Origin: Eledone cirrhosa
Lineage: Eukaryota
Length of the DNA stretch: 64,000 bases
Assembly (NCBI GenBank): GCA_964016885.1
Contig: OZ024741.1
Coordinates: 191,704,001 to 191,768,000, forward strand
Direction: 5' to 3'
Each line of letters starts with the position of its first letter. The first letter of the stretch is position 1. The notes beneath the pieces were generated by a model, which saw only the letters and a list, made by a program, of their open reading frames with translations, ran no database searches and was not told the DNA's origin. This document shows, piece after piece, positions 18,181-60,873 of this stretch. The position numbers and the translations under genes were made by a program.

Positions 18181-21100
18181 TCATCATCATCATCACCGTT
18201 TTACGTCCGTTCTTCCACGCTAGCATGGGTTAGACGGGTTGTCCTGTTGTGGGCAGTGTCTGGTCGGCTGACCATGCCTTGCTCATACAGGAACTGATCT
18301 GGCTTGATTTCTACAGCTGGATGCCCTTCCTAACACCAACCTCATTTACAGTCAGTGCTGGGTGCTTTTTCGTGGCGCCTACACGTCCACTTTACAGTGT
18401 GGGCTGGGTGCTTTTTTGCCGTGGCACCTCCACGACCACCTTGCGGTGGGGGGAGTGGAGGCATATTGTTTATATGCTTCAGCATGTACCCATGGGAGGT
18501 CGGGTACCCTGTATTACTGCGTGACGCCAGAAGTCACGGTCGTGTGTCATTGACTTTGAGAGGTGTAGTTGGGTAAGGTCGGCTTTTATCACCTCATCCC
18601 AAGTCATCTTGGGTCTCCCCACTCCGCGGTTTCCATCAACTTCTAGTGCTCTGCACCTTTTTATGCAGCTGTCATCCTTCATACGCATCACATGTCCATA
18701 CCAGCGTAACCGCCTCTCCTGCACGCAGCATTTGATTCCTCTTATGCTCAGTCTCTCTCTCAATTCCTTTATGCTTTGTCGTTCACGTATATTACTGTTA
18801 CACATCCATCGGAGCATGCAGGCTTCGTTTCTCTCTAATCTACGTAAGTCTTCCACCTTCAGCGCCCAGGTCTCACTACCATGCAACATCGCTGTTCGGA
18901 TACACGCATCATACAGTCTGCCTTTCATTCTGAGGGAGAAGCCTTTTGCAGCTAGCAGTGGTAGTAGTTCCCTAAACTTCTTCCATCCCGTTCTTACCCT
19001 AGTTATTGTACTTTCTGAGCACCCACCTCCGTTGCTAATTCGGTCACCTAGGTAGCAGAAGCTGTCTACTGTTTCTACAGGGCCCTCCCAGAGATTGGTG
19101 GTACTTGTTTCCTGTGGCTGTTTGCTTGCTGTTTCAGCACAGCTGCTGCATGTGAATCCTACATTCTTAATTAAGCTTCCTGAGATCCCGCTACATCTCT
19201 TGTGTACCCATTGTTTGCATTTGGGGCAGAGAATGGAGTTCCTACCTACACCTTTCCTACATACTGAGCAAGGCCATTTCCCTGAGGGGATCTGGGTTCT
19301 GTTTTCTCGTCTACTTATAAGGACCTTAGTCTTTGTCATGTTGACTTTGAGGCCCTTTCTCTCTAGTCCCTGCTTCCAGGTTTGGAATTTATTCTCTAGT
19401 TCTACCATAGATTCAGCTATGAGTGCGAGGTCATCAGCATACAGGAGTTCCCATGGGCATCCGGTCTTAAACTCCTCCGTTATTGCCTGCAGGACTATGA
19501 TGAACAGGAGAGGGCTAAGAACAGAGCCCTGGTGGACCCCAACCTGTACGCTAAATTCCTCGCTATACTCATTGCTAATCCTAACTTTGCTGACTGCTCC
19601 CCTATACATGGCTTGTACCGCTTTCACAAGCCATTCATCTACTCCTAGTTTTCTAAGAGCCCACCAGATTACTGCACGTGGAACTCTGTCAAAGGCTTTC
19701 TCAAGGTCGACAAATGCCAAGTAGAGTGGCTTACTTTTAGCTAGGTACTTTTCCTGTAATTGCCTCACAAGGAAGAGGGCATCAGTGGTGTCTTTCCCTG
19801 GTACAAACCCAAATTGCATCTCGTCTATATTCACCCGGTCCCTAATCAGCTGTGCTATAACTCTTTCTGTTACTTTCATGACCTGGTCCATCAACTTTAT
19901 ACCTCTATAGTTTCCTCTATCTAGTGCATCGCCTTTACCTTTGTAGCAGTTGACAATGATGCTACTGCACCAATCTTTTGGTATGGCCCCCTCTAGTATT
20001 ACCTGGTTAACGATACGTGTGGTTATAGTGTGACCTACAGACCCAGATCCCTTCAGCATCTCGGCAGCTATACCCGATGGACCGGTTGCCTTCCCTATCT
20101 TCATATCTCTGATTGCCTTACTTACTACGCTGCCGCTGACTTGTACTGCTGGTCCCTCTATAGGGTCTACGTGGGGTAGGGTCTCTTCTTCCCATGCATT
20201 CTCCTCATTTAGTAATCTATCATAATGACTCTTCCATGCAGCTTTCTTCTCAGCACTTGTGAGGGCAAGCTCACCTTTATCATTCCGGATACACTTCTCT
20301 CCAATGACATCACAACTATCTCTGACACACTGCCTCGCAATCTTGAATACCTCCTGTTTCTGGTCCTCACGTTGTAAAACATGCTTGAATTTTCTATCCT
20401 CTGCTTCCCTCCTAGCTAAGTATACTTGTCGCCTAGCTTCCCTCTTGGTCTCTATGTAATGTACCCTGCTCCCTCCGTTCTTCCATTCTTTCCATGCCTG
20501 TCTCTTGGCCTTGACTGCTTCATCTACCTTATTGTTCCACCACCAAGTCACTCTCCTCCTGCTTGAGGTCTTACTCCAGCCACAAACCTCATCCGTCGCC
20601 TCTAGTAAGTTATTTTTTAGGAACTCCCAGTTCTCTTCTACGTTAAATGTCTCTATCTGTTCTTCTTTACTGTCGTAGGCGTTGAGTAAAATATCTTTAA
20701 ATCTGTTACTGGTTGAGGGGACTTTCAGCTTCCAGATCTTTCTTCTCCAGGTTGGCCTCTGTTTCAGGGCTCGTCTAGTTCTGACCGTGAGGTCGCTGAC
20801 AACTAAGCTATGTTGGGATGTACATTCCTCACTAGGGAAGGCTTTTGTGTTTACGACCGTCCATCTGTCACGTCCTCTGATGAGGATAAAATCTAACTGA
20901 CTAGAGTGCTCCCCTGATCTATAGGTGATCAGGTGGTTGTCGGGTTTTTTAAAGTTTGTGTTACATATCGACATGTCATTGGCGTCGCAGAATTCTAGAA
21001 GTCTGAATCCTTCCTCATTCCTTGTGCCAACTCCATGGCCTCCATGTACTCTATTGAAGCCGTCGCAGTGTTTACCTACGTGTCCGTTAAAATCTCCTGC

Positions 21101-21259
21101 AATGATTAGGAAGTCCTTGTCGTCTGTTAGAGCAGTAGTGTGTATTAGGGACTCGTAAAACCTATCCTTAAGTTCGTCTGGCAGCCCCGATTGGGGTGCG
21201 TAAGCTGATATTATTGTGGTAATTGTCTTATTCAGGACTAGTCTGAGTTTAATGATTCT

Positions 21260-21260
<1 letters not shown>
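18181..21260 (-). mobile_element. RTE LINE subfamily A, 5'-truncated within APE, flanked by (TA)n
   Basis: (GAT)n tail at 18181; continuous ORF; 5' junction into TA/TGCA repeats. Confidence 0.95.
18479..21260 (-). CDS. RTE ORF (partial APE, RT with PHD finger), open but N-terminally truncated
   Basis: SAYAPQ, AGDFNGHVG, FVDLEKAFD, HQGSVLSP, YADD; the first about 40 aa of the 967-aa ORF call are microsatellite. Confidence 0.9.
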
Positions 21261-21297
<37 letters not shown>

Positions 21298-21357
21298 TAT
21301 ATATATGCATATATGCATATATATATATGCATATATATATATATATATATATATATG

Positions 21358-21765
21358 CATCATCATCATCATCGTTTAACATCCATATTCCACGCTTGCA
21401 TGGGTTTGGACGGGAGTTTTCCCACTTGAGGCAAGAGTGGTTGTCTTGCTCGCATAGGACTGTCTGGCGGATTTTCTACGGCTGGATGCTCTTCCTAACA
21501 CCAACCACGTTTACAGTGTGGAACTGGGAGGTTTTTACCATGTTACCTACACGCCCACATTACAGCGTGGACTGTGTGTTTTTTGTCGTGACACCTACAC
21601 AACCTCATTTGTTTCGGCCTGGATGTTGTGGTACCAACATAACTTTACATTGAAAGGGGGTGGTGTGGATGGGGTGGGGGTAGTGGGACCGGGGTGTATT
21701 TTGTTAGAGGTGCCTACTGATTGTAGTAGGTTTTACTTTGTATTTAGGTAAGGCGAGTCTTCTTT
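21358..21765 (-). mobile_element. Short RTE 3' fragment (B/C-like) in (TA)n
   Basis: 3'UTR homologous to 23047-23560, with (GAT)n tail. Confidence 0.85.
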
Positions 21766-21936: not shown

Positions 21937-22073
21937 TATACACATATGCATACAGGTACACATACATATATGCACGCATCAGTTTAGCCGACGTTTATTA
22001 TAACGCCTGCTTTGTTCGTTTGTTTGTTTGTTTGCTTTTCAACTTATCGTTTTCGGTATGCCTGACCGATTTA

Positions 22074-22135
22074 ACTCACTCAATATGCAAATTAGGCTGC
22101 TCAGCCGTTAATTTTCATAAGGAAAGTATATACTT
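22074..22135 (+). promoter_or_regulatory. Candidate snRNA-type promoter (octamer, conserved box, TATA) of RZ-A
   Basis: ATGCAAAT at 22085-22092, TAATTTTCATA, TATATA at 22127-22132; same order and spacing in RZ-B/C/D. Confidence 0.5.
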
Positions 22136-22165
22136 TCGAACGTTCAACTATCTGGCAGATGGGTA

Positions 22166-22210
22166 AACGGTGCTGATGATAGCTAACAAGCTTGAAACTA
22201 GTACATCGTT
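22166..22210 (+). ncRNA. Minimal type I hammerhead ribozyme
   Basis: AACGGUG-CUGAUGA-U-AGCU-aaca-AGCU-U-GAAAC-UA-GUA/CAUCGUU; predicted cleavage after 22203. Confidence 0.85.
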
Positions 22211-22369
22211 CCTGTGTCAGTGTTGAACAAAAAGGAGACGTGGTTGCCTTAACACCGTATGGCATAAATTCAGGCTGTTCGATTTGTTGACAAACAAACA
22301 AACAAAGCAGGCGTTATAATAAACGTCGGCTAAACTGATGCGTGCATATATGTATGTGTACCTGTATGC

Positions 22370-22410
<41 letters not shown>

Positions 22411-22644
22411 TGCTACTGTACGTCTGTATACATATATGTATGTACGTATACATACATACTTACATTTAAGTAAGTGCCATACTAAGAGTGAGAAATGAAA
22501 TTTCGTTTTCATTTTTTTCAACTTATCGTTTTCGGTATGCCTGACCGATTTAACTCACTCAATATGCAAATTAGGCTGCTCAGCCGTTAATTTTCATAAG
22601 GAAAGTATATACTTTCGAACGTTCAACTATCTGGCAGATGGGTA

Positions 22645-22689
22645 AACGGTGCTGATGATAGCTAACAAGCTTGAAACTAGTACATCGTT
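22645..22689 (+). ncRNA. Minimal type I hammerhead ribozyme (second unit)
   Basis: Identical to 22166-22210. Confidence 0.85.
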
Positions 22690-22859
22690 CCTGTGTCAGT
22701 GTTGAACAAAAAGGTGACGTGGTTGCCTTAACACCGTATGGCATAAATTCAGGCTGTTCGATTTGTTGACAAACAAACGAACAAAGCAGGCGTTATAATA
22801 AACATCGGCTAAACTGATGCGTGCATATATGTATGTGTACCTGTATGCATATGTGTATA

Positions 22860-22923
<64 letters not shown>

Positions 22924-23046
22924 TGCTACTGTACGTCTGTATACATATATGTATGTACGTATACATACATACTTACATTTAAGTAAGTGCCATACTAAGA
23001 GTGAGAAATGAAATTTCGTTTTCATTTTTTTCAACTTATATATATA

Positions 23047-26000
23047 TCATCATCATCATCATCAGGTTTAGCGTCCGTGTTCCACGCTTGCATGGGTTTG
23101 GACGGGGGTTTTCCCACTTGAGGCAAGAGTGGTTGTCTTGCTCGCATAGGACTGTCTGGCGGGTTTTCTACAGTTGGATGCCCTTCCTAACACCAACCAC
23201 ATTTACAGTGTGGGGCTGGGTGGTTTTTACCGTGTTGCCTACACGGCCACATTACAGCGTGGACTGTCTGGCGGGTTTTCTACAGCTGGATGCCCTTCCT
23301 AACACCAACCACATTTACAGTGTGGGGCTGGGAGGTTTTTACCGTGTTGCCTACACGGCCACATTTACAGCGTGGACTGTGTGTTTTTTGTCGTGACACC
23401 TACACGATCTCATTTGTTTCGGCCTGGATGTTGTGGCACCAACATAACTTTACATTGAAAGGGGCGGTGTGGGTGGGGTGGAGGTGGTGGGACGGGGGGG
23501 TGTTTTGATAGAGATGCCTACTGACTGTAGTAGGTTTTTACTTTGTATTTAGGTAAGGCGGGTCTTCTCTATTACTGAGTACCGCCAAAGGTCTCGGTCC
23601 AGTGACATTGTCTTGGAGAGGTGTAAGCGTGTGAGGTCGGAATTTATCAGCTCGTCCCATGTTTTTCTGGGTCTGCCTACTCCGTGGCTACCGTCTATCT
23701 TTATTGCCCTGCACTTTGTTATACAGCTGTTGTCTTTCATGCGCATCACGTGACCGTACCAACGTAGCCTTCTCTCGAGTAAACAACATCTGATCCCTCT
23801 TATTTCTAATTTTTTCCTTAGTTCGTTTATGCTTTGCCGTTCACGTATATTACTATTGCACATCCAGCGGAGCATGCAAGCTTCGTTCCTCTCTAGTCTG
23901 CGTATATCCTCTGCACACAATGCCCAGGTCTCACTGCCATGCAGCATTGCTGTTCGTATGCAGGCATCGTATAACCTGCCTTTCATTTTTAGGGAGAACC
24001 CTCTAGCGGCTAATAGTGGTATAAGCTCTCTGAACTTTTTCCATCCAGTTCTGACTCTAGCTACTGTACTTTCAGAGCACCCTCCCCCACTGCTGATTTT
24101 GTCACCCAGATAACGGAAGCTGTCCACTATTTCTATAGAACCCTCTGCGCAGTTGAAGGAGCTAGTATTTTGTGGGCACTTGCTGCTACTTATTGCACCA
24201 GAGCACCGGCCACATGTAAAATCTATGTTCTTAGTTAGCTTACCTGTGATCCCACTACATCTTTTATGCACCCATACTTTGCATTTGGGACATAAAATGG
24301 AGTCTCTACCTACGCCTTTCCTACACACTGAGCATGGCCATTTCCCAGATGGGACTGCCGCCTTATTTTCTTTCCTACAAACTAGAACTTTAGTCTTAGC
24401 CAGGTTAATTTTAAGGCCTTTTGATTCTAGGCCGTGCTTCCATGTTTGGAATTTCTTCTCTAGTTCGGTCATTGATTCAGCTATGAGCGTTAGATCATCT
24501 GCGTATAGGAGTTCCCATGGGCAGCCGGTCTTGAACTCCTCTGTTATAGCCTGAAGGGCAATAATAAATAGTAGGGGGTTAAGAACAGAGCCCTGATGGA
24601 CACCAACTTTTACGCTAAACTCTTCACTATATTCGTTGTTAATTCTAACCTTACTGACTGTTTCTTTATACATGGCTTGTATAGCTCTCACAAGCCATTC
24701 GTCAACACCTAGTTTTCTAAGAGACCACCAGATAATGGAACGGGGGACTCTGTCGAAGGCTTTCTCCAAGTCGACGAAAGCTAAGTATAGGGGTTTACTT
24801 TTAGCTAGGTACTTCTCCTGTAGTTGTCGTACAATGAAAAGAGCGTCTGTGGTACTTTTGCCTGACACAAACCCGAACTGCATTTCATCTAGATCAATTC
24901 TCTCTCTGATTAGTTGCGCTATTACTTTTTCCGTGACCTTCATGACCTGGTCGATTAATTTAATGCCTCTATAGTTACTCCTATCTAGGGCATCTCCTTT
25001 TCCCTTATAGCAGTTAACGATGATGCTGCTACGCCATTTCTTCGGAACAACCCCATTCTGTACGACTTGGTTAACTATCCGGGTGACCATGGTGTGTCCC
25101 ACCGAACCAGATGCCTTCAGCATCTCAGCAACTATTTCCGAAGGCCCAGCCGCCTTACCCGTCTTCATATCTTTGATTGCCTTACTTATTATACTACCTT
25201 CAACTAACACTGCTGGTCCCTCTATTGGATCGATCTGGGGGAGACTGTCTTTCTCCCATTTGTTCTCCTCATTTAGAAGCCTTTCGTAGTGACACTTCCA
25301 AGCTACCTTCTTATCAGCGTCGGTGATGGCAAGTATGCCATCATCGTTAAGTACACACTTCTCCCCGACAATATCACGGTTTTCCTTGACACATTGCCTG
25401 GCAATCCTGAACACCTCACGTTTTTGGTCCTCACGTTGTAGAACATGCTTGAACTTTCTTTCCTCTGCTTCCCTTCTTGCGAAGTACACTTGTCTCCTAG
25501 CTTCCCTCCTGGCCACTTGATAGTCTTCTCTACTTCCCCCATCCCGCCATACTTTCCAAGCCTGCTTTTTGGCCTTAATTGACTCCTCCACCTTACTGTT
25601 CCACCACCATGTTACTCTCCTCCTACCTACAGGCCTGCTCCAGCCACAGACTTCGTCTGCCGCCGTCAGCAGGTTTGCTCTCAGGAATTCCCACTGTTCC
25701 TCTATATTATACGACTCTAATTGCTCTTCCTTACTGTCGAAAGCGTCAAGTAATATGCTTTGAAATTTATTTCTGGCTATGGGGTCCTTTAGCTTCCATA
25801 TTTTTCTCCTGAGGATAGTCCTCTTCCGCTGTCTAGTACGTCTCGTCCTGACTATGAGGTCGCTAATTATCAGTCTATGTTGGGAGGTGAATTCTTCATG
25901 GGGGTGGGATTTAGTGTTAACAACAGACACTCTGTCACGTCTTCTGGTAAGGATATAATCTACCTGGCTTGTGTGTTCCCCCGATCTATAGGTGATCAAG

Positions 26001-26920
26001 TGATTGTCTCGTTTTTTGAAGTTAGTGTTACAGATAGTTAAGTTATTTGCGTCGCAGAATTCCAGGATTCTGGAGCCTTCCTCATTTCTAGTACCGAACC
26101 CATAGCCTCCATGGATTCCGTCATAGCCGTCACAATGTTGTCCAACGTGACCATTTAGGTCGCCTGCAATAACTATATAGTCACTGTCGGTTATTTGGGA
26201 GGTAGCGAGCATCAGTGTCTCGTAGAATCTGTCTTTTATAGCGCCGGGCAGTCCGGATTGGGGTGCGTACGCAGATATTACTGTCACCGTAGTTTTATTG
26301 AGGACAAGTCTTATTTTAATTATTCTGTTGTTCACTCTATTTACGTCTATTATCTTATCTGCCCACTTTTCTGCTACCATGATTCCTACCCCACCCAACC
26401 CATTGTCATTTCCCACCCAGAAAAGCTTATAGCATCGTTCTTTACCCACGATGAATCTAGCCGACCCTCCCCTCCACCTGGTCTCTTGAATACAACAAAC
26501 ATCGACCTCCTTTCGTTCAAGCATTTCTACAACCTCGTTAGAGCGACCCTTTAAGGTGCCTACATTCATGGTACCAACTCTGAAGTTTTGGATTGCGTTT
26601 GGAGGGTGGGAGCGGTGGGGCGCGGGGGGGGGGGGGGGTTATGTTAGCCATCCTGGGCCGAAACAAGGAGGAGTGCTTGCATTCTCGTCCACGAGGTGAA
26701 TTTGGCTTTATCTTCGGCATTGTCGCTGAGCGTCCACATTTTTCTCTCTTCAACTCTCCAGAATTCCGTAGTCCATCCATCATATCGAAAAGCAACCAGT
26801 TAAGCGATAGTATGGGCCTCTGACTTATGATTGGTCCACGTAATAATGGTGGTGCGTGGGGGCGGGAGGGAGGGATGATGGGTTGTTAGCGAGAATGTAA
26901 GGTTTAAGATAAGATCGCCG

Positions 26921-38646: not shown

Positions 38647-39262
38647 CATGAGAAGAAAGAAGAATACTGTGTGGTTTGCACATGGGTTACATATGATAAA
38701 AATAGTCCTTCGTCAGTGATTTTCCAACCATCATTGGTATTTCATCGCATTAAAAATCAGATACCTCAGGTTGGTGCGAGCAATAACTATAAAAAAAGTT
38801 ATTGAGACCAGAATTCGCGTAAGGCGAGGAGGACAAGTAAACAACATAGAAGGATAAAAGCAAACCGAAGATAGGAAAATAAACAAGCAGCATGGTTGTC
38901 CGGTCAGCATAAACTGGGTGGATTTCATGAGCGAGAGAGGTACAGACCGTGTTGATGTGAACAAGAAGAGACCCACACAAGCCAAACGGGAGGAAGTGAG
39001 AAGGGGAGAAACAGAGAGTGAGTGAGTGGAAGTGTGAGGAAGAGGTCAGTCGAGAGAAAGTGTAACTGACAGAGGGGGCGAAAGAAGGTGAGAGAAATAT
39101 ATATGTATATATATATACATACATGCACACATATATATATGTACGTATGGATTCACCGAACATTTATTATAATGCTCGGTGTGTTTGTAAACAAACATCC
39201 CGAATTAAGCTGTACAGTGTCTAGCAACCATCGTTGCTCATTTGTTCAACCCTGACAAAGGA

Positions 39263-39305
39263 ACGCTGTACTAGTTTCAAGCGTATTAGCTATCGTCAGC
39301 AACGT
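39263..39305 (-). ncRNA. Minimal type I hammerhead ribozyme
   Basis: ACGUUG-CUGACGA-UAGCUaauaCGCUU-GAAAC-UA-GUA/CAGCGU. Confidence 0.8.
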
Positions 39306-39755
39306 ATACCTTCCTGCCAGATGATTGAACGTCTGAAAGTATATACTTTCCTTATGCATATTAACGGCTGAGCAGCCTAATTTGCATATCGAGTGAGTTA
39401 ATCGGCCGGGGTACCGAAAACGATAAACGGAAAAAATGAAACGAAATTTCATTTCTCACTCTTAGTACGGCTGTTACTTAAATATAAGTATGTATATGTG
39501 CATGTATGTATATATATATATATATACATACTACTGTACGTCTGTATACACATATGTATGTACGTATACATACTTATATTTAAGTAACAGCCGTACTAAG
39601 AGTGAGAAATGAAAGTTCGTTTCTTTTTTTCCGTTTATCGTTTTCGGTACCCCGGCCGATTAACTCACTCGATATGCAAATTAGGCTGCTCAGCCTTTAA
39701 TATGCATAAGGAAAGTATATACTTTCAGACGTTCAATCATCTGGCAGGAAGGTAT

Positions 39756-39798
39756 ACATTGCTGACGATAGCTAATAAGCTTGAAACTAGTACAGCGT
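39756..39798 (+). ncRNA. Minimal type I hammerhead ribozyme
   Basis: ACAUUG-CUGACGA-UAGCUaauaAGCUU-GAAAC-UA-GUA/CAGCGU. Confidence 0.8.
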
Positions 39799-40119
39799 TC
39801 TTTTGTCAGGGTTGAACAAACACACCGAGCATTATAATAAATGTTCGGTGAATCCATACGTACATATATATATTTGTGCATGTATGATATATATATACAT
39901 ACTACTGTACGTCTGTATACATATATGTATGTACGTATACATACTTATATTTAAGTAACAGCGGTACTAAGAGCGAGAAATGAAATTTCGTTTCATTTTT
40001 TCCGTTTATCGTTTTCGGTACCCCGGCCGATTAACTCACTCGATATGCAAATTAGGCTGCTCAGCCGTTAATATGCATAAGGAAAGTATATACTTTCAGA
40101 CGTTCAATCATCTGGCAGG

Positions 40120-40171
<52 letters not shown>

Positions 40172-40370: not shown

Positions 40371-43300
40371 TGATGGATGGATGGACGGACGGACTGCGGA
40401 ATCCTGGAGAGTGGAAGGGAGAGAAAAATCTGGACGCTCAGAGCGAAAATGCCAAAGTTAAAGTCAAATTCACCTCGTGGACGAGAATGCGAGCACTCCT
40501 CTTTGTTTCGTCCGCGGATGGCTAACATAACCCTATCTCCTCCCGCCCCCCACCACCCCCACCCTCCAAACGCAACCCAAAACTTCAGAGTTGGTACCAT
40601 AAATGTAGGCACCCTAAAGGGTCGCGCTAACGAGGTTGTAGAAATGCTTGAACGTAAGGAGCTCGATGTTTGTTGTATTCAAGAGACCAGGTGGAGGGGT
40701 GGGTATGCTAGATTCATTGAGGGTAAAAAACGATGTTATAAGCTTTTCTGGGTGGGAAACGACGATGGGCTGGGTGGAGTAGGAATCATGGTAGCAGAAA
40801 AGTGGGCAGATAAGATAATAGACGTAAATAGAGTGAACGACAGAATAATTAAAATAAGACTTGTCCTCAATAGAACTACGGTGACAGTAATATCTGCGTA
40901 CGCACCCCAATCCGGACTGCCCGGCACTATAAAAGACAGATTCTATGAGACACTGTTGCTAACTACCTCCCAAATATCTGACAGTGACTATATAATTATT
41001 GCAGGCGACCTAAATGGTCACGTTGGACAACATTGTGACGGCTACGACGAAATCCATGGAGGCTATGGGTTTGGTACTAGAAATGAGGAAGGCTCCAGAA
41101 TTCTGGAATACTGTGATGCAAATAACCTAACTATCTGTAACACTAACTTCAAAAGACGTGACAATCACCTGATCACCTATAGATCCGGGGAACACACAAG
41201 CCAGGTAGATTATATCCTTACCAGAAGACGTGACAGAGTGTCTGTTGTAAACACTAAATCCCTCCCCCATGAAGAATGCACCTCCCAACATAGACTGATA
41301 ATTAGCGACCTCATAGTCAGGACGAGACGTACTCGACAGCAGAAGAGGACTATCCTCAGGAGGAAAATATGGAAACTAAAGGACCCCACAGCCAGAAATA
41401 AATTTCAAAGCATATTACTTGATGCTTTCGACAGTAAGGAAGAGCATCTAGAATCGGACAATATAGAGGGACAGTGGGAATTTCTGAAAGCAAACCTGCT
41501 GTTGGCGACAGACGAAGTCTGTGGCTGGAGCAGGCCTGTAGGCAGGAGGAGAGTAACATGGTGGTGGAACAGTAGGGTGGAGGGGTCAATTAAGGCCAAA
41601 AGGCTTGGAAAGTATGGCGGGATGGGGGAAGTAGAGTAGACTATCAAGTGGCCAGGAGGGAAGCTAGGAGAGAAGTGTACTTAGCAAGAAGGGAAGCTGA
41701 GGAAAGAAAGTTCAAGCATGTTCTACAACGCGATGACCAAAAACGTGAGGTGTTCAGGATTGCCAGGCAATGCGTCAAGGAAAACCGTGATATTGTCGGG
41801 GAGAAGTGTGTACTAAACGATGATGGCATACTTGCCATCACCGACACTGATAAGAAGGTAGCTTGGAAGTGTCACTATGAAAGGCTACTAAATGAGGAGA
41901 ATAAATGGGAGAAAGACAGTCTCCCCCATATCGACCCAATAGAGGGACCAGCAGTGTTAGTCGAGGGGAGTATAATAAGTAAGGCAATCAAGGATATGAA
42001 GACTGGTAAGGCGGCTGGGCCTTCGGAAATAGTTGCTGAGATGCTGAAGGCATCTGGCACGGTGGGACACACCATGGTCACCCGCATAGTTAACCAAGTC
42101 GTACAGAATGGGGTTGTTCCGAAGGACTGGCATAGCAGCATCATTGTTAACTGTTATAAGGGTAAAGGAGACGCCCTAGATAGGAGTAACTATAGAGGCA
42201 TTAAATTAATCGACCAGGTCATGAAGGTCACGGAAAAAGTAATAGCGCAACTAATCAGAGAGAGAATTGATCTAGATGAAATGCAGTTCGGGTTTGTGTC
42301 AGGCAAAAGCACCACAGACGCTCTTTTCATAGTACGACAACTACAGGAGAAGTACCTAGCTAAAGGTAAACCCCTCTACTTAGCTTTTGTCGACCTGGAG
42401 AAAGCCTTCGACAGAGTCCCCCGCTCCATTATCTGGTGGGCTCTTAGAAAACTAGGCGTTGACGAATGGCTTGTGAGGGCTATACAAGCCATGTATAAAG
42501 AAACAGTCAGCAAGGTTAGAATTAACAACGAATATAGTGAAGAGTTTAGCGTAAAAGTTGGCGTCCATCAGGGCTCTGTTCTCAGCCCCCTACTATTTAT
42601 TATTGCCCTTCAGGCTATAACAGAGGAGTTCAAGACAGGCTGCCCATGGGAACTCCTATACGCAGACGACCTGACACTCATAGCGGAATCAATGGCCGAG
42701 CTAGAGAAGAAATTCCAAACATGGAAGCACGGCCTAGAGTCAAAAGGACTTAAAATTAACCTGGCTAAGACCAAAGTTCTAGTTTGTAGGAAAGAAAACA
42801 AGGCGGCGGTCCCTTCTGGGAAATGGTCGTGCTCGGTATGTAGGAAAGGCGTAGGTAGAAACTCCATCTTATGTCCTAAATGCAAAGTATGGGTGCATAA
42901 AAGATGTAGTGGGATCACAGGTAAGCTAACTAAGAACATAGACTTTACATGTGGCCGGTGTTCTGGTGCAATAAGTAGCAGCAAGTGCCCACAAAATACT
43001 AGCTCTTTCAATTGCGCAGAGGGTTCTATAGAAATAGTGGACAGCTTCCGTTACCTGGGCGATAAAATCAGCAGTGGGGGAGGGTGCTCTGAAAGTACTG
43101 TAGCTAGAGTCAGAACTGGTTGGAAAAAGTTCAGAGAGCTTATACCACTATTAGCTGCTAAAGGGTTCTCCCTAAAAATGAAAGGCAGGTTGTACGATGC
43201 CTGCATACGAACAGCAATGTTGCATGGTAGTGAGACCTGGGCATTGTGTGCAGAGGATATACGCAGACTAGAGAGGAACGAAGCTTGCATGCTCCGCTGG

Positions 43301-43979
43301 ATGTGTAACAGTAATATACGTGAACGGCAAAGCATAAACGAACTAAGGAAAAAATTAGAGATAAGAGGGATCAGATGTTGTTTACTCGAGAGAAGACTGC
43401 GTTGGTATGGACACGTGATGCGCATGAAAGTCGATAGCTGTATTACAAAGTGCAGGGCAATAAAGATAGACGGTAGCCACGGAATAGGCAGACCTAGAAA
43501 AACATGGGATGAGCTGATAAACTCCGACCTCACACACTTACACCTCTCCAAGACAATGTCACTGGACCGTGACCTTTGGCGGTACTCAGTAACAGAGAAG
43601 ACCCGCCTTGCCAGTAGGCATCTCTAACAAAATACACCCCGTCCCGCCACCACCCCCACCCCATCCACACCACCCCGTTCTATGTAAAGATATGTTGGTG
43701 CCGCGCCATCCAGGCCGAAACAAATGAGATCGTGTAGGTGTCACGACAAAAAAACACACAGTCCACGCTTTAATGTGGCCGTGTAGGCAACACGGTAAAA
43801 ACCTCCCAGACCCACACTGTAAATGTGGTTGGTGTTAGGAAGGGCATCCAACTGTAGAAAACCTGCCAGACAGTCCTATGCGAGCAAGACAATCACTCTT
43901 GCCTCAAGTGGGACTACCCCCGTCCAAACCCATGCAAGCGTGGAACACGGACGTTAAACGTTGATGATGATGATGATGA

Positions 43980-45842: not shown

Positions 45843-52695
<6,853 letters not shown>

Positions 52696-53293
52696 ATATG
52701 AAAGACGTAAAATAAGAAAATTATAAAAATTAACTTACTTAAGTTTCACTCCAACTAATTAGTTTCTGAAAGGGGATATACATAGTGTTCAAAACCATGG
52801 AGAATTCCTTTCTTCTTCAGGGAGTCAATTCTCTGCTAAGATCCCAGGCGATAGGCGGACACAGGGAGCTCAAACAAAAATAATTCAGTGAATGGAAAAG
52901 AAGCAAGCGCGGACTGAATTTCAAGACACTGAAAATTTCACTGCCTTCCCAGACGGTGGCACATTCAAAAGAATCAATCACGTGACATCGAGGTTAATCA
53001 GTGAGGAGTGGGATGTTAAAAAGACAGTAGCCAAAATATTACTATGAATCATAGCAGTAATTCAGGTGAATTTTTGCTCAAAAAATAATTTGGAGTTAAT
53101 TATAAAGAATTAGTATATCTACCGACATATTTATACAGAAGTATACTTATGCTAGCAAGATATAGGTTTCGTCTTAGTAACTTTGTGGTTCAATACAAAT
53201 ATGTAGAACAATTATATGAAAGACGTAAAAGAAGAAAATTATAATAATTAACTTACTTACTTAAGTTTCACTCCAACTAATTAGTTTCTGAAA
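52696..53293 (-). mobile_element. ORF-less about 520-bp unit with about 80-bp terminal direct repeat and hammerhead
   Basis: 52696-52771 is repeated at 53214-53293; TA flanks. Confidence 0.75.
52748..52825 (-). ncRNA. Type I hammerhead ribozyme
   Basis: ACUCC-CUGAAGA-A-GAAAGG...CCUUUC-A-GAAAC-UAAUUA-GUU/GGAGU. Confidence 0.8.
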
Positions 53294-53586
53294 TATATAT
53301 ATATATACGTATATATATATATATATATACGTATATATATATATATATATACGTATATATATATAATTAAGTTAAAAATGTACATCCACATATGTATACT
53401 GAAATACTAGTATGCATATGAATACACACACGTATACATATGTAGATGTACCGAGTTTTTTCACTGGTCACTTTACTGTGAGTGTCCAGCTATTCTGTAT
53501 GTAAACACACAGACAAACCGGTTTTTAGAGTCATACTGGTTTTTGAGGAAACACCTTTCCTCTATTCTCCAGAAAGCCAGACAAGG

Positions 53587-53631
53587 AATATTGAACTAGT
53601 TTCGTTGTTGTTACAACTCATCAGCAATATT
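53587..53631 (-). ncRNA. Minimal type I hammerhead ribozyme
   Basis: AAUAUUG-CUGAUGA-GUUGU-aaca-ACAAC-GAAAC-UA-GUU/CAAUAUU. Confidence 0.88.
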
Positions 53632-53828
53632 TACCTATCTTCCGGCCTTTCTAGAGAATCGTAAAAGCACATATCGTTATATGCTTTTTCTATGAAAATT
53701 AGTAGTGGGCAGACTAATTTGCATAGAGCGTGAGTACGCACCGGTTCAACGGAGACGATAAAAACGAATAACGAAACGAAATTAAATTTCGCTTCGTTTG
53801 TAACGTTGTAAAGGCCGGAAGATAGGTA

Positions 53829-53873
53829 AATATTGCTGATGAGTTGTAACAACAACGAAACTAGTTCAATATT
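53829..53873 (+). ncRNA. Minimal type I hammerhead ribozyme
   Basis: Same motif on the plus strand. Confidence 0.88.
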
Positions 53874-54161
53874 CCTTGTCTGGCTTTCTGGAGAATAGAG
53901 GAAAGGTGTTTCCTCAAAAACCAGTATGACTCTAAAAACCGGTTTGTCTGTGTGTTTACATACAGAATAGCTGGACACTCACAGTAAAGTGACCAGTGAA
54001 AAAACTCGGTACATCTACATATGTATACGTGTGTGTATTCATATGCATACTAGTATTTCAGTATACATATGTGGATGTACATTTTTAACTTAATTGTTTA
54101 AGCGTCAGTCATACAAAAGTGAGTTACAAACGAAGCGAAATTTAATTTCGTTTCGTTATTC

Positions 54162-54165
<4 letters not shown>

Positions 54166-54222
<57 letters not shown>

Positions 54223-54224
54223 CG

Positions 54225-54274
<50 letters not shown>

Positions 54275-54296
54275 CGTATATATATATATATATACG

Positions 54297-54334
<38 letters not shown>

Positions 54335-54336
54335 CG

Positions 54337-54368
<32 letters not shown>

Positions 54369-54426
54369 TATATATATATACGTATATATATATATATATA
54401 TACGTATATATATATATATATATACG

Positions 54427-54458
<32 letters not shown>

Positions 54459-54488
54459 CGTATATATATATATATATTTATATATACG

Positions 54489-54524
<36 letters not shown>

Positions 54525-54526
54525 CG

Positions 54527-54586
<60 letters not shown>

Positions 54587-54618
54587 CGTATATATATATA
54601 TATATATTTATATATACG

Positions 54619-54652
<34 letters not shown>

Positions 54653-54685
54653 CGTATATATATATATATATATATTTATATATAC

Positions 54686-54744
<59 letters not shown>

Positions 54745-54745
54745 C

Positions 54746-54786
<41 letters not shown>

Positions 54787-54787
54787 C

Positions 54788-54844
<57 letters not shown>

Positions 54845-54899
54845 CGTATATATATATATATACGTATATATATATATATACGTATATATATATATATAC

Positions 54900-54946
<47 letters not shown>

Positions 54947-54965
54947 CGTATATATATATATATAC

Positions 54966-55006
<41 letters not shown>

Positions 55007-55025
55007 CGTATATATATATATATAC

Positions 55026-55074
<49 letters not shown>

Positions 55075-55128
55075 CGTATATATATATATATATATTTATA
55101 TATACGTATATATATATATATATACGTA

Positions 55129-55191
<63 letters not shown>

Positions 55192-55218
55192 GTATATATA
55201 TATATATATATATACTTA

Positions 55219-55265
<47 letters not shown>

Positions 55266-55359
55266 GTATATATATATATATATATATATAAATATATATA
55301 TATATACGTATATATATATATATATATATATAAATATATATATATATACGTATATATAT

Positions 55360-55392
<33 letters not shown>

Positions 55393-55585
55393 CGTATATA
55401 TATATATATATATATATATACGTATATATATATATATATATATTTATATATACGTATATATATATATATTTATATATACGTATATATATATATATATATT
55501 TATATATACGTATATATATATATATTTATATATACGTATATATACGTATATATATATATATATATTTATATATATTTATATATAC

Positions 55586-55656
<71 letters not shown>

Positions 55657-55667
55657 CTTATATATAC

Positions 55668-55716
<49 letters not shown>

Positions 55717-55717
55717 C

Positions 55718-55792
<75 letters not shown>

Positions 55793-55793
55793 C

Positions 55794-55852
<59 letters not shown>

Positions 55853-55854
55853 CG

Positions 55855-55886
<32 letters not shown>

Positions 55887-55888
55887 CG

Positions 55889-55926
<38 letters not shown>

Positions 55927-55928
55927 CG

Positions 55929-55962
<34 letters not shown>

Positions 55963-55964
55963 CG

Positions 55965-55998
<34 letters not shown>

Positions 55999-55999
55999 C

Positions 56000-56040
<41 letters not shown>

Positions 56041-56042
56041 CG

Positions 56043-56076
<34 letters not shown>

Positions 56077-56078
56077 CG

Positions 56079-56112
<34 letters not shown>

Positions 56113-56113
56113 C

Positions 56114-56165
<52 letters not shown>
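54166..56165. repeat. (TA)n array punctuated by TTTA...CG
   Basis: Direct reading. Confidence 0.95.
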
Positions 56166-56167
<2 letters not shown>

Positions 56168-58548: not shown

Positions 58549-58780
58549 GTATATATATATATAATTAAGTTAAAGTGTACATCTACATATGTATACGGAA
58601 GTATTAGTATGCATATAAATACACACATGTATACATATGTACATGTACTCAGCTTTTCACTAGACACTTTACAGTGAGTGTCAGCTAGTCTGTATGTAAC
58701 CACATAGGCGGACCGGGTTTTAGAGTCATACGAGTTTTCAAGGAAACACATTTCCTCTATTCCCCAGAGGGCCAGACAGG

Positions 58781-58825
58781 AATATTGGACTAGTTTCGAT
58801 GTTATTACATCTCATCAGCAATATT
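58781..58825 (-). ncRNA. Minimal type I hammerhead ribozyme (first of five in RZ-D)
   Basis: AAUAUUG-CUGAUGA-GAUGU-aaua-ACAUC-GAAAC-UA-GUC/CAAUAUU; canonical core and GUC triplet. Confidence 0.9.
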
Positions 58826-58870
58826 TACCCATCTTCCGGCTTCTCTGGAGAATTGTAAAAGCACATATCG

Positions 58871-58930
58871 TTATATGCTTTTTCTATGAAAATTAGTAGT
58901 GGGTAGACCAATTTGCATAGAACGTGAGTC
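58871..58930 (-). promoter_or_regulatory. Candidate snRNA-type promoter of an RZ-D unit
   Basis: Minus strand ACTCAC...ATGCAAAT (58911-58918)...TAATTTTCATA...CATATAA. Confidence 0.5.
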
Positions 58931-58959
58931 ATTGTACGCACCGGTTCAGCGGAAACGAT

Positions 58960-58996
58960 AAAAACAAATAACGAAACGAAATTAAATTTCGTTTCG
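58960..58996 (-). terminator. Palindrome plus T5 run, candidate Pol III terminator / RNA 3' end of the RZ unit
   Basis: CGAAACGAAATT-T-AATTTCGTTTCG then TTATTTGTTTTT; equivalent hairpin plus T6-7 in RZ-A/B. Confidence 0.4.
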
Positions 58997-60841
58997 CTTC
59001 TAACTCACTTTTGTATGACTGACGCTTAAACAATTAAGTTAAAGTGTACATCTACATATGTATACGGAAGTATTAGTATGCATATAAATACACACATGTA
59101 TACATATGTACATGTACTCAGCTTTTCACTAGACACTTTACAGTGAGTGTCAGCTAGTCTGTATGTAACCACATAGGCGGACCGGGTTTTAGAGTCATAC
59201 GAGTTTTCAAGGAAACACATTTCCTCTATTCCCCAGAGGGCCAGACAGGAATATTGGACTAGTTTCGATGTTATTACATCTCATCAGCAATATTTACCCA
59301 TCTTCCGGCTTCTCTGGAGAATTGTAAAAGCACATATCGTTATATGCTTTTTCTATGAAAATTAGTAGTGGGTAGACCAATTTGCATAGAACGTGAGTCA
59401 TTGTACGCACCGGTTCAGCGGAAACGATAAAAACAAATAACGAAACGAAATTAAATTTCGTTTCGCTTCTAACTCACTTTTGTATGACTGACGCTTAAAC
59501 AATTAAGTTAAAGTGTACATCTACATATGTATACGGAAGTATTAGTATGCATATAAATACACACATGTATACATATGTACATGTACTCAGCTTTTCACTA
59601 GACACTTTACAGTGAGTGTCAGCTAGTCTGTATGTAACCACACAGACGGACCGGGTTTTAGAGTCATACGAGTTTTCAAGGAAACACATTTCCTCTATTC
59701 TCCAGAGGGCCAGACAGGAATATTGGACTAGTTTCGATGTTATTACATCTCATCATCAATATTTACCCATCTTCCGGCTTCTCTGGAGAATTGTAAAAGC
59801 ACATATCGTTATATGCTTTTTCTATGAAAATTAGTAGTGGGTAGACCAATTTGCATAGAACGTGAGTCATTGTACGCACCGGTTCAGCGGAAACGATAAA
59901 AACAAATAACGAAACGAAATTAAATTTCGTTTCGCTTCTAACTCACTTTTGTATGACTGACGCTTAAACAATTAAGTTAAAGTGTACATCTACATATGTA
60001 TACGGAAGTATTAGTATGCATATAAATACACACATGTATACATATGTACATATACTCAGCTTTTCACTAGACACTTTACAGTGAGTGTCAGCTAGTCTGT
60101 ATGTAACCACACAGGCGGACCGGGTTTTAGAGTCATACGAGTTTTCAAGGAAACACATTTCCTCTATTCTCCAGAGGGCCAGACAGGAATATTGGACTAG
60201 TTTCGATGTTATTACATCTCATCAGCAATATTTACCCATCTTCCGGCTTCTCTGGAGACTTGTAAAAGCACATATCGTTATATGCTTTTTCTATGAAAAT
60301 TAGTAGTGGGTAGACCAATTTGCATAGAACGTGAGTCATTGTACGCACCGGTTCAGCGGAAACGATAAAAACAAATAACGAAACGAAATTAAATTTCGTT
60401 TCGCTTCTAACTCACTTTTGTATGACTGACGCTTAAACAATTAAGTTAAAGTGTACATCTACATATGTATACGGAAGTATTAGTATGCATATAAATACAC
60501 ACATGTATACATATGTACATGTACTCAGCTTTTCACTAGACACTTTACAGTGAGTGTCAGCTAGTCTGTATGTAACCACACAGACGGACCGGGTTTTAGA
60601 GTCATACGAGTTTTCAAGGAAACACATTTCCTCTATTCTCCAGAGGGCCAGACAGGAATATTGGACTAGTTTCGATGTTATTACATCTCATCAGCAATAT
60701 TTACCCATCTTCCGGCTTCTCTGGAGAATTGTAAAAGCACATATCGTTATATGCTTTTTCTATGAAATTAGTAGTGGGTCAGTCATACAAAAGTGAGTTA
60801 GAAGCGAAACGAAATTTAATTTCGTTTCGTTATTTGTTTTT

Positions 60842-60873
<32 letters not shown>

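Follow-up and report, generated by a model that had tools for sequence, protein, structure and literature searches.

Among described systems, those closest to the repeats considered here are the metazoan non-LTR retrozymes (Cervera and de la Pena 2020, PMC7229834; Li, Clavereau and Pollet 2026, bioRxiv 10.64898/2026.07.22.740005). In the accessible sections of these papers, neither of which analyses promoters there, the word promoter occurs only as the T7 promoter in the former and is absent from the latter. Hammerhead repeats with promoters of their own have been described elsewhere; in particular, as presented in part of PMC2220036, newt satellite 2 is a hammerhead repeat with an internal Pol II promoter of the snRNA type (Coats, Zhang and Epstein 1994), and a schistosome hammerhead satellite carries a Pol III promoter (Ferbeyre 1998). 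Sections of two further papers bear on reverse transcription: a Penelope-like RT starts in vitro at two adjacent internal sites and so makes the genomic 'tail' (Frangieh 2024, PMC11167929), and Penelope-like elements form inverted copies, have tails at one end and target (TA)n (Craig 2021, PMC8557442). A literature search, which left subscription papers mostly outside its reach, returned no publication that deals with invertebrate retrozyme promoters, with retrozymes of octopods, or with retrozyme editing marks.

The stretch of DNA analysed here (the window, 64,000 nt; positions 191,704,001 to 191,768,000 of OZ024741.1 in the 3.0 Gb genome of Eledone cirrhosa) contains four types of short, non-coding unit, RZ-A, RZ-B, RZ-C and RZ-D, that are 429-511 bp long and occur both in tandem and dispersed. 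Approximately 28,000 such units were counted genome-wide; an exact-pattern search of the genome found 6,527 C/D units and 21,669 A/B units, and the reversed controls found 0. The C/D units are both young and abundant (97-99% identity). Each unit type in the window carries a type I hammerhead 88 nt (A/B) or 100 nt (C/D) after the octamer ATGCAAAT, and the core, stems I and II and a short stem III are present in every unit. (Note that a search of the units against Rfam at the gathering score returned no match, and that unit positions are counted from the A of ATGCAAAT, which is position 0.) The octamer lies 5' of the hammerhead at 22085 and 22564 in RZ-A, at 39387 (minus strand), 39674 and 40045 in RZ-B, at 53724 (minus strand) in RZ-C, and at 58918, 59387, 59856 and 60325 (minus strand) in RZ-D.

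A first-pass annotation of the window had treated A/B and C/D as two separate unit types that both kept a set of promoter-like motifs. The two can be aligned from end to end, and the blocks kept between them are the tail (with AATTTCGTTT and TTATCGT), the octamer, TAAT.T.CATA, TATA and the ribozyme core. Because A/B and C/D are homologous over their whole length, they represent one lineage and not two independent witnesses. As for the motifs, TAAT(T/A)T(T/G)CATA followed by TATA is indeed found 3' of the octamer in all of A-D, and ACTCAC is found upstream of it, but with a spacer of five nucleotides (ACTCAC-n5-ATGCAAAT) and not the six that had been given. The hairpin plus T-run said to precede the next octamer is likewise there, although the T-runs of A/B and C/D are not homologous: the T6-8 of A/B lies 7-8 nt before the end site, and the T5 of C/D aligns with the GTTTAT end site of RZ-B. 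At the level of sequence, RZ-A to RZ-D are identified as homologous hammerhead retrozymes with Penelope-type ends. Of note, an abundant subfamily, B' (L210, L248; about one third of the A/B rows listed), has an 8-nt deletion between TATA and the ribozyme, after which position 72 is still Y|A and stem I is whole.

RZ-C in the window consists of two arms joined head to head. The minus arm (53366..53804, minus strand) has its 5' end at unit position 386 and its 3' end at site 1 (position 358), where it is joined to (TA)n. On the same strand it contains the octamer block TATGCAAATTAG (53714..53725; position 0 is 53724), a PSE-like stretch (53691..53708) with the core CCACT at position 16, a TATA-like box (53677..53682; positions 42-47) that lies 27 nt after the PSE core and within the 5' arm of a hairpin, and a type I hammerhead (53587..53631) with a short palindromic stem III and a predicted cut between 53594 and 53593. 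Five extra bases (53805..53809) form the junction with the plus arm (53810..54165, plus strand), an inversion arm that covers positions 74 to about 430, stops at site 2, and includes a type I hammerhead (53829..53873) with a predicted cut between 53866 and 53867. RZ-D is built in the same way: an array of 4.7 units of 469 bp (58563..60779, minus strand; 3' end at site 1) lies head to head with a short inverted arm of 64 bp (60778..60842, plus strand) that runs from just past site 1 to site 2. The RZ-A units (22036..23039, plus strand), whose last end is 6-8 nt past a T7, are accompanied by an inverted piece (21972..22027, minus strand). RZ-B is represented by a minus arm (39102..39481), a plus arm with an internal deletion (39489..40131; ends approximate in both arms), and a tail-only fragment (49239..49297, minus strand) that lies between site 1 and site 2 and ends 7-8 nt past a T6. 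RZ-C and this fragment are both contained in approximately 10 kb of degenerate (TA)n (45843-56167). The window also holds LINE copies that encode an endonuclease, an RT and an embedded PHD finger (18479-21475 and 23549-26638), together with a LINE copy that is related to them at the DNA level (40374-43627).

We compared the units with a host set of 29 promoters, from which near-identical array copies were excluded. (Note that 12 further U6 matches and several U6atac matches without promoters, which resemble retrocopies, were left out.) The host promoters fall into three classes, each of which, even that of the Pol II genes, has a TATA-like box near -30. The 22 Pol II snRNA promoters (six U1, four U2, six U5, two U11, one U12 and three U3) have YCA at -55..-58 and a first TATA 23-31 nt later, with 21 of the 22 having one at 24-28; U1, U2 and U5 also have AATTA near -90 (-89..-91) and a 3' box downstream, and U1, U2 and U12 start at Y|A. 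Three U6 genes, U6atac and MRP have TATG(C/G)(A/T)AAT(T/G)AG at -76..-78, TATA 46-48 later, a start at T|G and T6-10 at the gene end. In 7SK and RNase P, TCAGT is found at -64/-66 and TATA 32-34 nt later. Which polymerase serves which class is well established for these RNA families, and the T-runs and 3' boxes of the host genes agree with that assignment. Separately, a mobile insertion separates the PSE region from the TATA box in some copies of the U6 array on C19 (L007, L008, L010-L013) and likely silences those copies.

The upstream part of the RZ units is a hybrid of two of these classes, with the octamer block of one and the Pol II-type spacing of another. The octamer block TATGCAAATTAG, the word that host U6, U6atac and MRP have at -76..-78, equals the host U6-class block in 11-12 of 12 bases, and a pattern of octamer block plus TATA found 28,718 matches genome-wide versus 795 for the reversed control. 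The distance from octamer to TATA is 42-43 in A-D, compared to 46-48 in the host U6 class. A core that matches the host PSEs, (T/C)CA(G/C), is present 16 nt after the octamer start; it reads TCAGC in A/B and CCACT in C/D and precedes TATA by 26-27 nt, which is the Pol II spacing. Across RZ families the octamer is 40-45 from TATA, and the PSE core (YCA at position 16) is 24-29 nt from it (29 in family K, and within 24-28 in A, B, E, F and G). With a matrix made from the 22 host Pol II genes, position 16 ranks 1-5 of 876 in A, B, B', E, E2, F, F2, G and K, and with a 17-gene host matrix it ranks first in six of these. The same 22-gene matrix ranks position 16 only 37 (C) and 24 (D) of 876, where a host U6 gene (L001) ranks 18, and 110-306 in families I and J; the background P of the match, by the 17-gene matrix, is 0.25 in C and 0.17 in D. 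Thus, the superfamily as a whole matches the PSE well, and C/D, the family at this locus, matches it only weakly, although the spacing from PSE core to TATA fits the Pol II class in C/D too. Y|A is found at 71|72 in all four unit types of the window, which puts the predicted transcription start of the minus arm at 53652 (minus strand; position 72, a T|A that lies 29-30 nt downstream of the TATA-like box). The AATTA of host U1, U2 and U5 is missing or shifted in RZ units, a 3' box pattern of the host type was not found in A-D, and an octamer at -72 was found in 0 of the 22 host Pol II promoters checked.

The first-pass annotation had proposed an snRNA-type promoter of the U6/H1, or Pol III, kind in each unit. 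Similarity to the upstream regions of host U6, 7SK and U1 genes does exist in the octamer block, the YCA core and TATA, and the snRNA-type character is upheld to that extent, with the reservation that the PSE match is weak in C/D. The Pol III assignment of A-D is not, because the units follow the spacing of host Pol II snRNA genes and because A/B have T6-8 in every unit. We consider it likely that RZ units have a promoter of their own; given a promoter, use by Pol II rather than Pol III in A-D is quite likely.

TAATTTTCATA, originally put forward as the PSE, makes up the 3' part of the PSE-like stretch of the minus arm; it repeats the octamer block in inverted orientation, as a degenerate copy with one mismatch, and is predicted to pair with it in RNA. 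Moreover, the older relatives F and F2 are without TAATTTTCATA yet keep TCAGC. We therefore discarded it as PSE, the host-like core being at position 16 instead. A caveat attached to the original proposal, that TATA lies in a palindrome, was well founded: octamer and TATA both fall inside predicted hairpins, TATA in a hairpin arm. Counts of shared variants within families are 0 in the inverted site and in TATA, and such counts have little power.

The same layout recurs in other hammerhead families. Among the first 100 listed of the 28,718 octamer-TATA matches, 86 are A/B and 14 are of other types. (Note that the search pattern demanded octamer and TATA, with the hammerhead and the position-16 core left free, and that family K was picked with a pattern forcing wider spacing.) Families E, F, G and I have no blastn alignment with A-D beyond low-complexity bits, and F2 (L281) seems to be an older A/B relative. 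The hammerhead core is 90-108 nt downstream of the octamer in E, G, I and J; F and K have a variant core, as read by eye, that of F being U3:A8-type, and in family H no hammerhead was seen downstream of the octamer. By eye, the PSE stretch of F is identical to host U2 and U5 PSEs at 11 of 14-15 positions. The octamer strand is fixed across families, and its pairing partner differs or is absent in F, G and I. The old families I and J have U6 spacing (47-48) and T|G or C|G at 77-78, and in most copies of I seen, T5-8 follows soon after the ribozyme; Pol III should not cross such a T-run. (Loci of E, F, G and K are L239, L243-L247, L209; L233, L238, L220, L281, L284 and L268, and those of I and J are L241, L242, L270, L273, L277, L278, L282, L285; L279.) As a side observation, also made by eye, the U3:A8 core of the F type resembles that of the host Penelope-like families F1, F5 and F6.

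The plus copy of RZ-C had been singled out as matching the predicted primary transcript. Its description was accurate: it matches the minus copy from 53810 on, 27 nt after the end of TATAA, it ends in the T-run at 54165 (microhomology extends to 54169), and RZ-C has an earlier T5. The reading of the copy as a primary transcript, however, does not hold up, because the copy forms one arm of an inversion and meets the minus copy head to head across the five extra bases, and because only one 5' end is found at the predicted start, as chance allows. In particular, the junction falls 2 nt after the predicted start, so that the arm is without the first two predicted transcript bases. Among 63 C/D 5' ends (32 + 31, with one at an N gap and one internal in the set of 32), the window plus arm is the only one in positions 72-77, and the chance of at least one of 63 falling there is approximately 0.56 (6/466 per end). 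None of the first 100 listed of the 6,527 C/D units (26 arms) starts at positions 72-78. Eight junctions were placed by eye in positions 37-77 among the first 100 listed A/B units (at about 38, 40, 48, 62, 64, 68, 69 and 76; there is also one internal deletion), with no peak at 72. Positions 455-42 hold 13 of 31 C/D 5' ends, to which sample selection and hairpins may both contribute. The start of the RZ-C plus copy is a chance inversion junction, seen no more than chance would give, and it is very unlikely, as judged by these ends, that the copy represents a primary transcript.

When copy endpoints were tabulated for sampled C/D and A/B loci, 5' ends proved to be scattered and 3' ends fixed at two sites. 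In 18 C/D insertions, chosen by a motif downstream of the predicted start, all 31 3' ends are at TTA(T) sites followed by (TA)n, 14 at site 1 (positions 355-363) and 17 at site 2 (positions 429-432). Thirteen of the 18 are two-armed, and all 13 of these use one site 1 and one site 2; in a second C/D set of 30 loci, 29 of 31 3' ends are at the two sites. On the plus arm of RZ-C (plus strand), site 1 (ACTTAATTGTTTA, 54088..54100) and site 2 (GTTTTTAT, 54163..54169, joined to (TA)n) are likely the first and second start sites of reverse transcription, and the tail hairpin with the conserved AATTTCGTTT (54129..54157) lies between them. The internal T5 (54082..54086), which is T4 in other copies, is crossed by this arm. 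End sites of RZ-B are at 332-338 and 390-393; 15 of the 41 ends listed are at site 2, 7 nt past the T6, and approximately 10 of the 41 are internal breaks or lie within the TA-like part. At 31 further A/B loci, nine of nine site-2 ends were found 7-8 nt past the T6-8 and 0 inside the run, and C/D site-2 ends fall in or at the T5. Ends in the window had been said to fall in, at or a few nt past the T-run; 54165 is inside it, and 23037-23039 and 49239 are 6-8 nt past. The T-run had been taken for a terminator. A Pol III RNA that ended in the T-run could not template bases beyond it, so A/B ends past the run speak against a terminator, and two fixed sites per Penelope 'tail' rule are found instead. 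To judge from where copies end, it is improbable that the T-run sets the copy end.

Open reading frames that encode an RT with a C-terminal GIY-YIG domain co-occur with RZ in the host genome, and some are long and 97% alike. The host elements F1 and F2 (not to be confused with the hammerhead families F and F2) have two 3' ends 60-65 nt apart, (TA)n and head-to-head pairs. These two-site ends, together with the work of Frangieh and of Craig, lead us to read the hairpin and T-rich stretch as a tail, one that likely represents the starting region of reverse transcription and not the end of transcription. F1 is a young Penelope-like family (97% protein identity; open frames of 938 and 844 codons) with two 3' ends in (TA)n (L188:3809-6622, L189:2488-5019, L193, L196, L197, L201), the first of which resembles site 2 of RZ-B; F2 has CCAAT boxes, TATA, a hammerhead and two 3' ends (L191, L192, L195, L199, L204) and lies head to head in L199. 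The likeness between the RZ-B and F1 tails is weak (2/500 shuffles, in one of nine comparisons), and a partner search by blastn of 50 loci from the GIY-YIG search found no RZ-like repeat in the sequence of Penelope-like elements.

Arms of RZ insertions run through many whole units, up to approximately 31 among the units listed. In 38 C/D insertions, 16 of the 25 changes common to all units of one insertion only were A>G and three were T>C, compared to 14 A>G among 119 single-unit changes; counted by insertion, the asymmetry is milder (seven with A>G versus three with T>C). The shared A>G changes cluster in hairpins, and none has a 5' G. The shared changes fit ADAR editing, of which A>G is the signature. 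The A>G changes on the ribozyme strand suggest that edited RNA templates holding the promoter were copied. The idea of the first-pass annotation that read-through from unit to unit lets the promoter be copied gains support from the arms that are many units long and from A>G changes inside the octamer. A>G clusters on the ribozyme strand were seen in all units, and often in both arms, of several insertions (L045:811-2014, L060, L055, L056, L339); in L045 there are five A>G changes within 20 nt of the tail hairpin.

In one array, every unit of both arms carries an octamer altered at three A positions. We entertained the idea that this array was a one-off dead end and rejected it, since the same haplotype, a young RZ-C with three A>G changes that we call octamer-dead, was found as 71 units in seven insertions with different junctions. 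It makes up approximately 1% of 7,269 units; its units are near-identical, with one intact octamer in the stretches examined. The spread of this haplotype indicates that the octamer is not needed in the copied unit. It also means that 'private' changes may be inherited from a source copy, and the case for a single circle as template is weaker than at first, given inheritable changes. (Octamer-dead loci are L341, L342 and L347-L353, on C1, C6, C18, C410 and C744; in L353 one unit of another haplotype lies beside octamer-dead units, likely through a template switch.)

Four sequencing runs were typed on a ribosomal-protein gene, by which X4 is spliced RNA and X1 is DNA. Contigs of X4 cover RZ-C, and one bridges the predicted start and the TATA region, but these contigs give no strand, start or level. 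Because of this, and because host transcripts may carry copies, the cover in X4 was not counted as promoter activity. The summed depth of RZ-C contigs in X4 relative to X1 is far below that of other repeats, contig depth not being a ranking measure. Among loose ends of X4 compared with RZ-C by eye (12 of 35 rows), two differ by T>C on the plus strand only (6/6 and 7/7; A>G as seen on the ribozyme strand), and one further end differs in the opposite sense.

We incline to an account in which RZ units, with octamer, PSE-like core and TATA at the spacing of U1, U2 and U5, are likely transcribed by Pol II and copied from two Penelope-like RT start sites. Pol II would start at Y|A approximately 72 nt after the octamer start and, as the units are without a host-type 3' box, would cross the T-runs into the next unit. 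Two successive hammerheads would then cut out a monomer that starts behind the cut and contains body, tail and the promoter of the unit that follows, and this monomer would be circularised and sometimes A-to-I edited in hairpins. A Penelope-like RT/GIY-YIG protein would cut (TA)n and prime the two target strands at different sites, site 1 for one and site 2 for its partner; the RT would copy a variable length of the circle, going round it, and the resulting cDNAs would join head to head at random points. The plus copy would be one such arm, with its junction by coincidence 2 nt past the predicted start.

Suppose instead that a U6/H1-type Pol III promoter drives the units, that the T-run hairpin ends most transcripts with rare read-through, and that the plus copy is a reverse-transcribed primary transcript. 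The octamer 12-mer would then be explained by its occurrence only in the host Pol III class (five of seven Pol III promoters versus none of the 22 Pol II promoters), and the C/D site-2 ends in or at T5 would fit as well. Against this, the distance from octamer to TATA is 42-43 and not 46-48, and positions 11-29 score below zero on a U6-class matrix (a weak point, as MRP fails leave-one-out). The A/B ends lie beyond the run, where RNA terminated in it could not serve as template, and A/B have T6-8 in every unit, the length at which host Pol III genes end (T6-10). A second end site exists, with arms alternating between the two, and 5' ends are not in excess at the predicted start. We consider this account rather unlikely for A-D. 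The true U6 spacing of I and J does fit it, and Pol III retrozymes may have existed.

A different possibility is that the units have no working promoter at all, the motifs being arms of RNA hairpins and the RNA coming from host transcripts that run through copies. Octamer and 'PSE' do form a 12-13 bp stem and TATA lies in another; z is -4.0 in C, -5.1 in D, -0.8 in A and -2.2 in B. The octamer-dead lineage is present in seven places, and copies are frequent enough for read-through (four RZ insertions in approximately 280 kb). Pairing alone, however, does not account for an octamer strand that stays while its partner differs or is absent (F, G, I), for three separate motifs at host spacing, or for a host-gene matrix that finds position 16 unaided, and we regard a promoterless unit as unlikely. 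The octamer block equals an optimal POU site, and immunoglobulin promoters are driven by an octamer near -70 together with TATA near -30. A third alternative is that the units use an ordinary Pol II promoter in which a POU site is combined with TATA and SNAPc takes no part, the PSE likeness being a relic lost in C/D; that C/D are young and abundant (97-99% identity, 6,527 units) yet have a poor PSE is in keeping with such a promoter. What makes it quite unlikely is that YCA(G/C) sits exactly at position 16 in A, B, E, F, G and K, that the F stretch is so close to the host U2 and U5 PSEs, and that the octamer-dead lineage keeps spreading. Returning to the snRNA-type Pol II reading, it can be extended to the whole superfamily, as self-transcribing circular RNAs that unite a U6-class POU block with a U1/U2-class PSE and TATA, in a Pol II and an older Pol III spacing, and whose ADAR-edited circles would be copied from two sites into arrays of at most 30 units, one edited, octamer-dead circle having seeded seven insertions. 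This extension is possible but speculative; if true, circles would persist or multiply without a working DNA promoter.

The general idea, a hammerhead repeat that brings along a promoter, has a precedent in newt satellite 2 and is not new. In the accessible parts of both retrozyme papers, how animal retrozymes are transcribed and whether circles template insertion are left open, and both points can now be tested here. The handles offered are a start base and a polymerase, both predicted, natural variants of the spacing, a lineage that goes on spreading with a natural mutation of the octamer, two predicted sites of priming, and editing marks as tags of RNA templates; a grammar of the host snRNA promoters was also obtained.

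Like the metazoan non-LTR retrozymes, as far as the sections cited describe them, RZ units are short, non-coding and tandem, have one type I hammerhead each, lie in dispersed arrays and co-occur with Penelope-like elements, and copying from circular RNA has been proposed for those retrozymes too. The two-site head-to-head ends and the A>G marks are absent from those sections. RZ differs from newt satellite 2, as partly described in our source, in its invertebrate host, its several unalignable families and its two spacing classes, and also in a U6-class octamer fixed 16 nt before the PSE core. With the schistosome satellite, on the same partial account, it shares the possession of an own promoter, which is a Pol III promoter there and has an upstream snRNA-type layout here. 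Octamer block and TATA are held in common with the host type 3 Pol III promoters (U6, U6atac, MRP, 7SK and RNase P), compared to which the RZ spacing is 4-6 bp shorter, the predicted start is Y|A rather than T|G, and ends are not set by the T-run. Upstream of the hammerhead, the host elements F1 and F2 show sequence of the CCAAT/TATA type and lack an octamer. In the sections consulted on PAc, priming occurs without homology to the cut DNA, whereas RZ ends all have a TTA(T) overlap with (TA)n. Compared to Penelope-like elements, RZ has no ORF and a tail of 60-70 nt versus 30-40. In the parts of those papers on which we draw, it nevertheless resembles them in the two RT start sites, the cutting of both strands in AT-rich DNA, the inverted 5'-truncated copy, the (TA)n targets, and a hammerhead that follows the promoter within the repeat.
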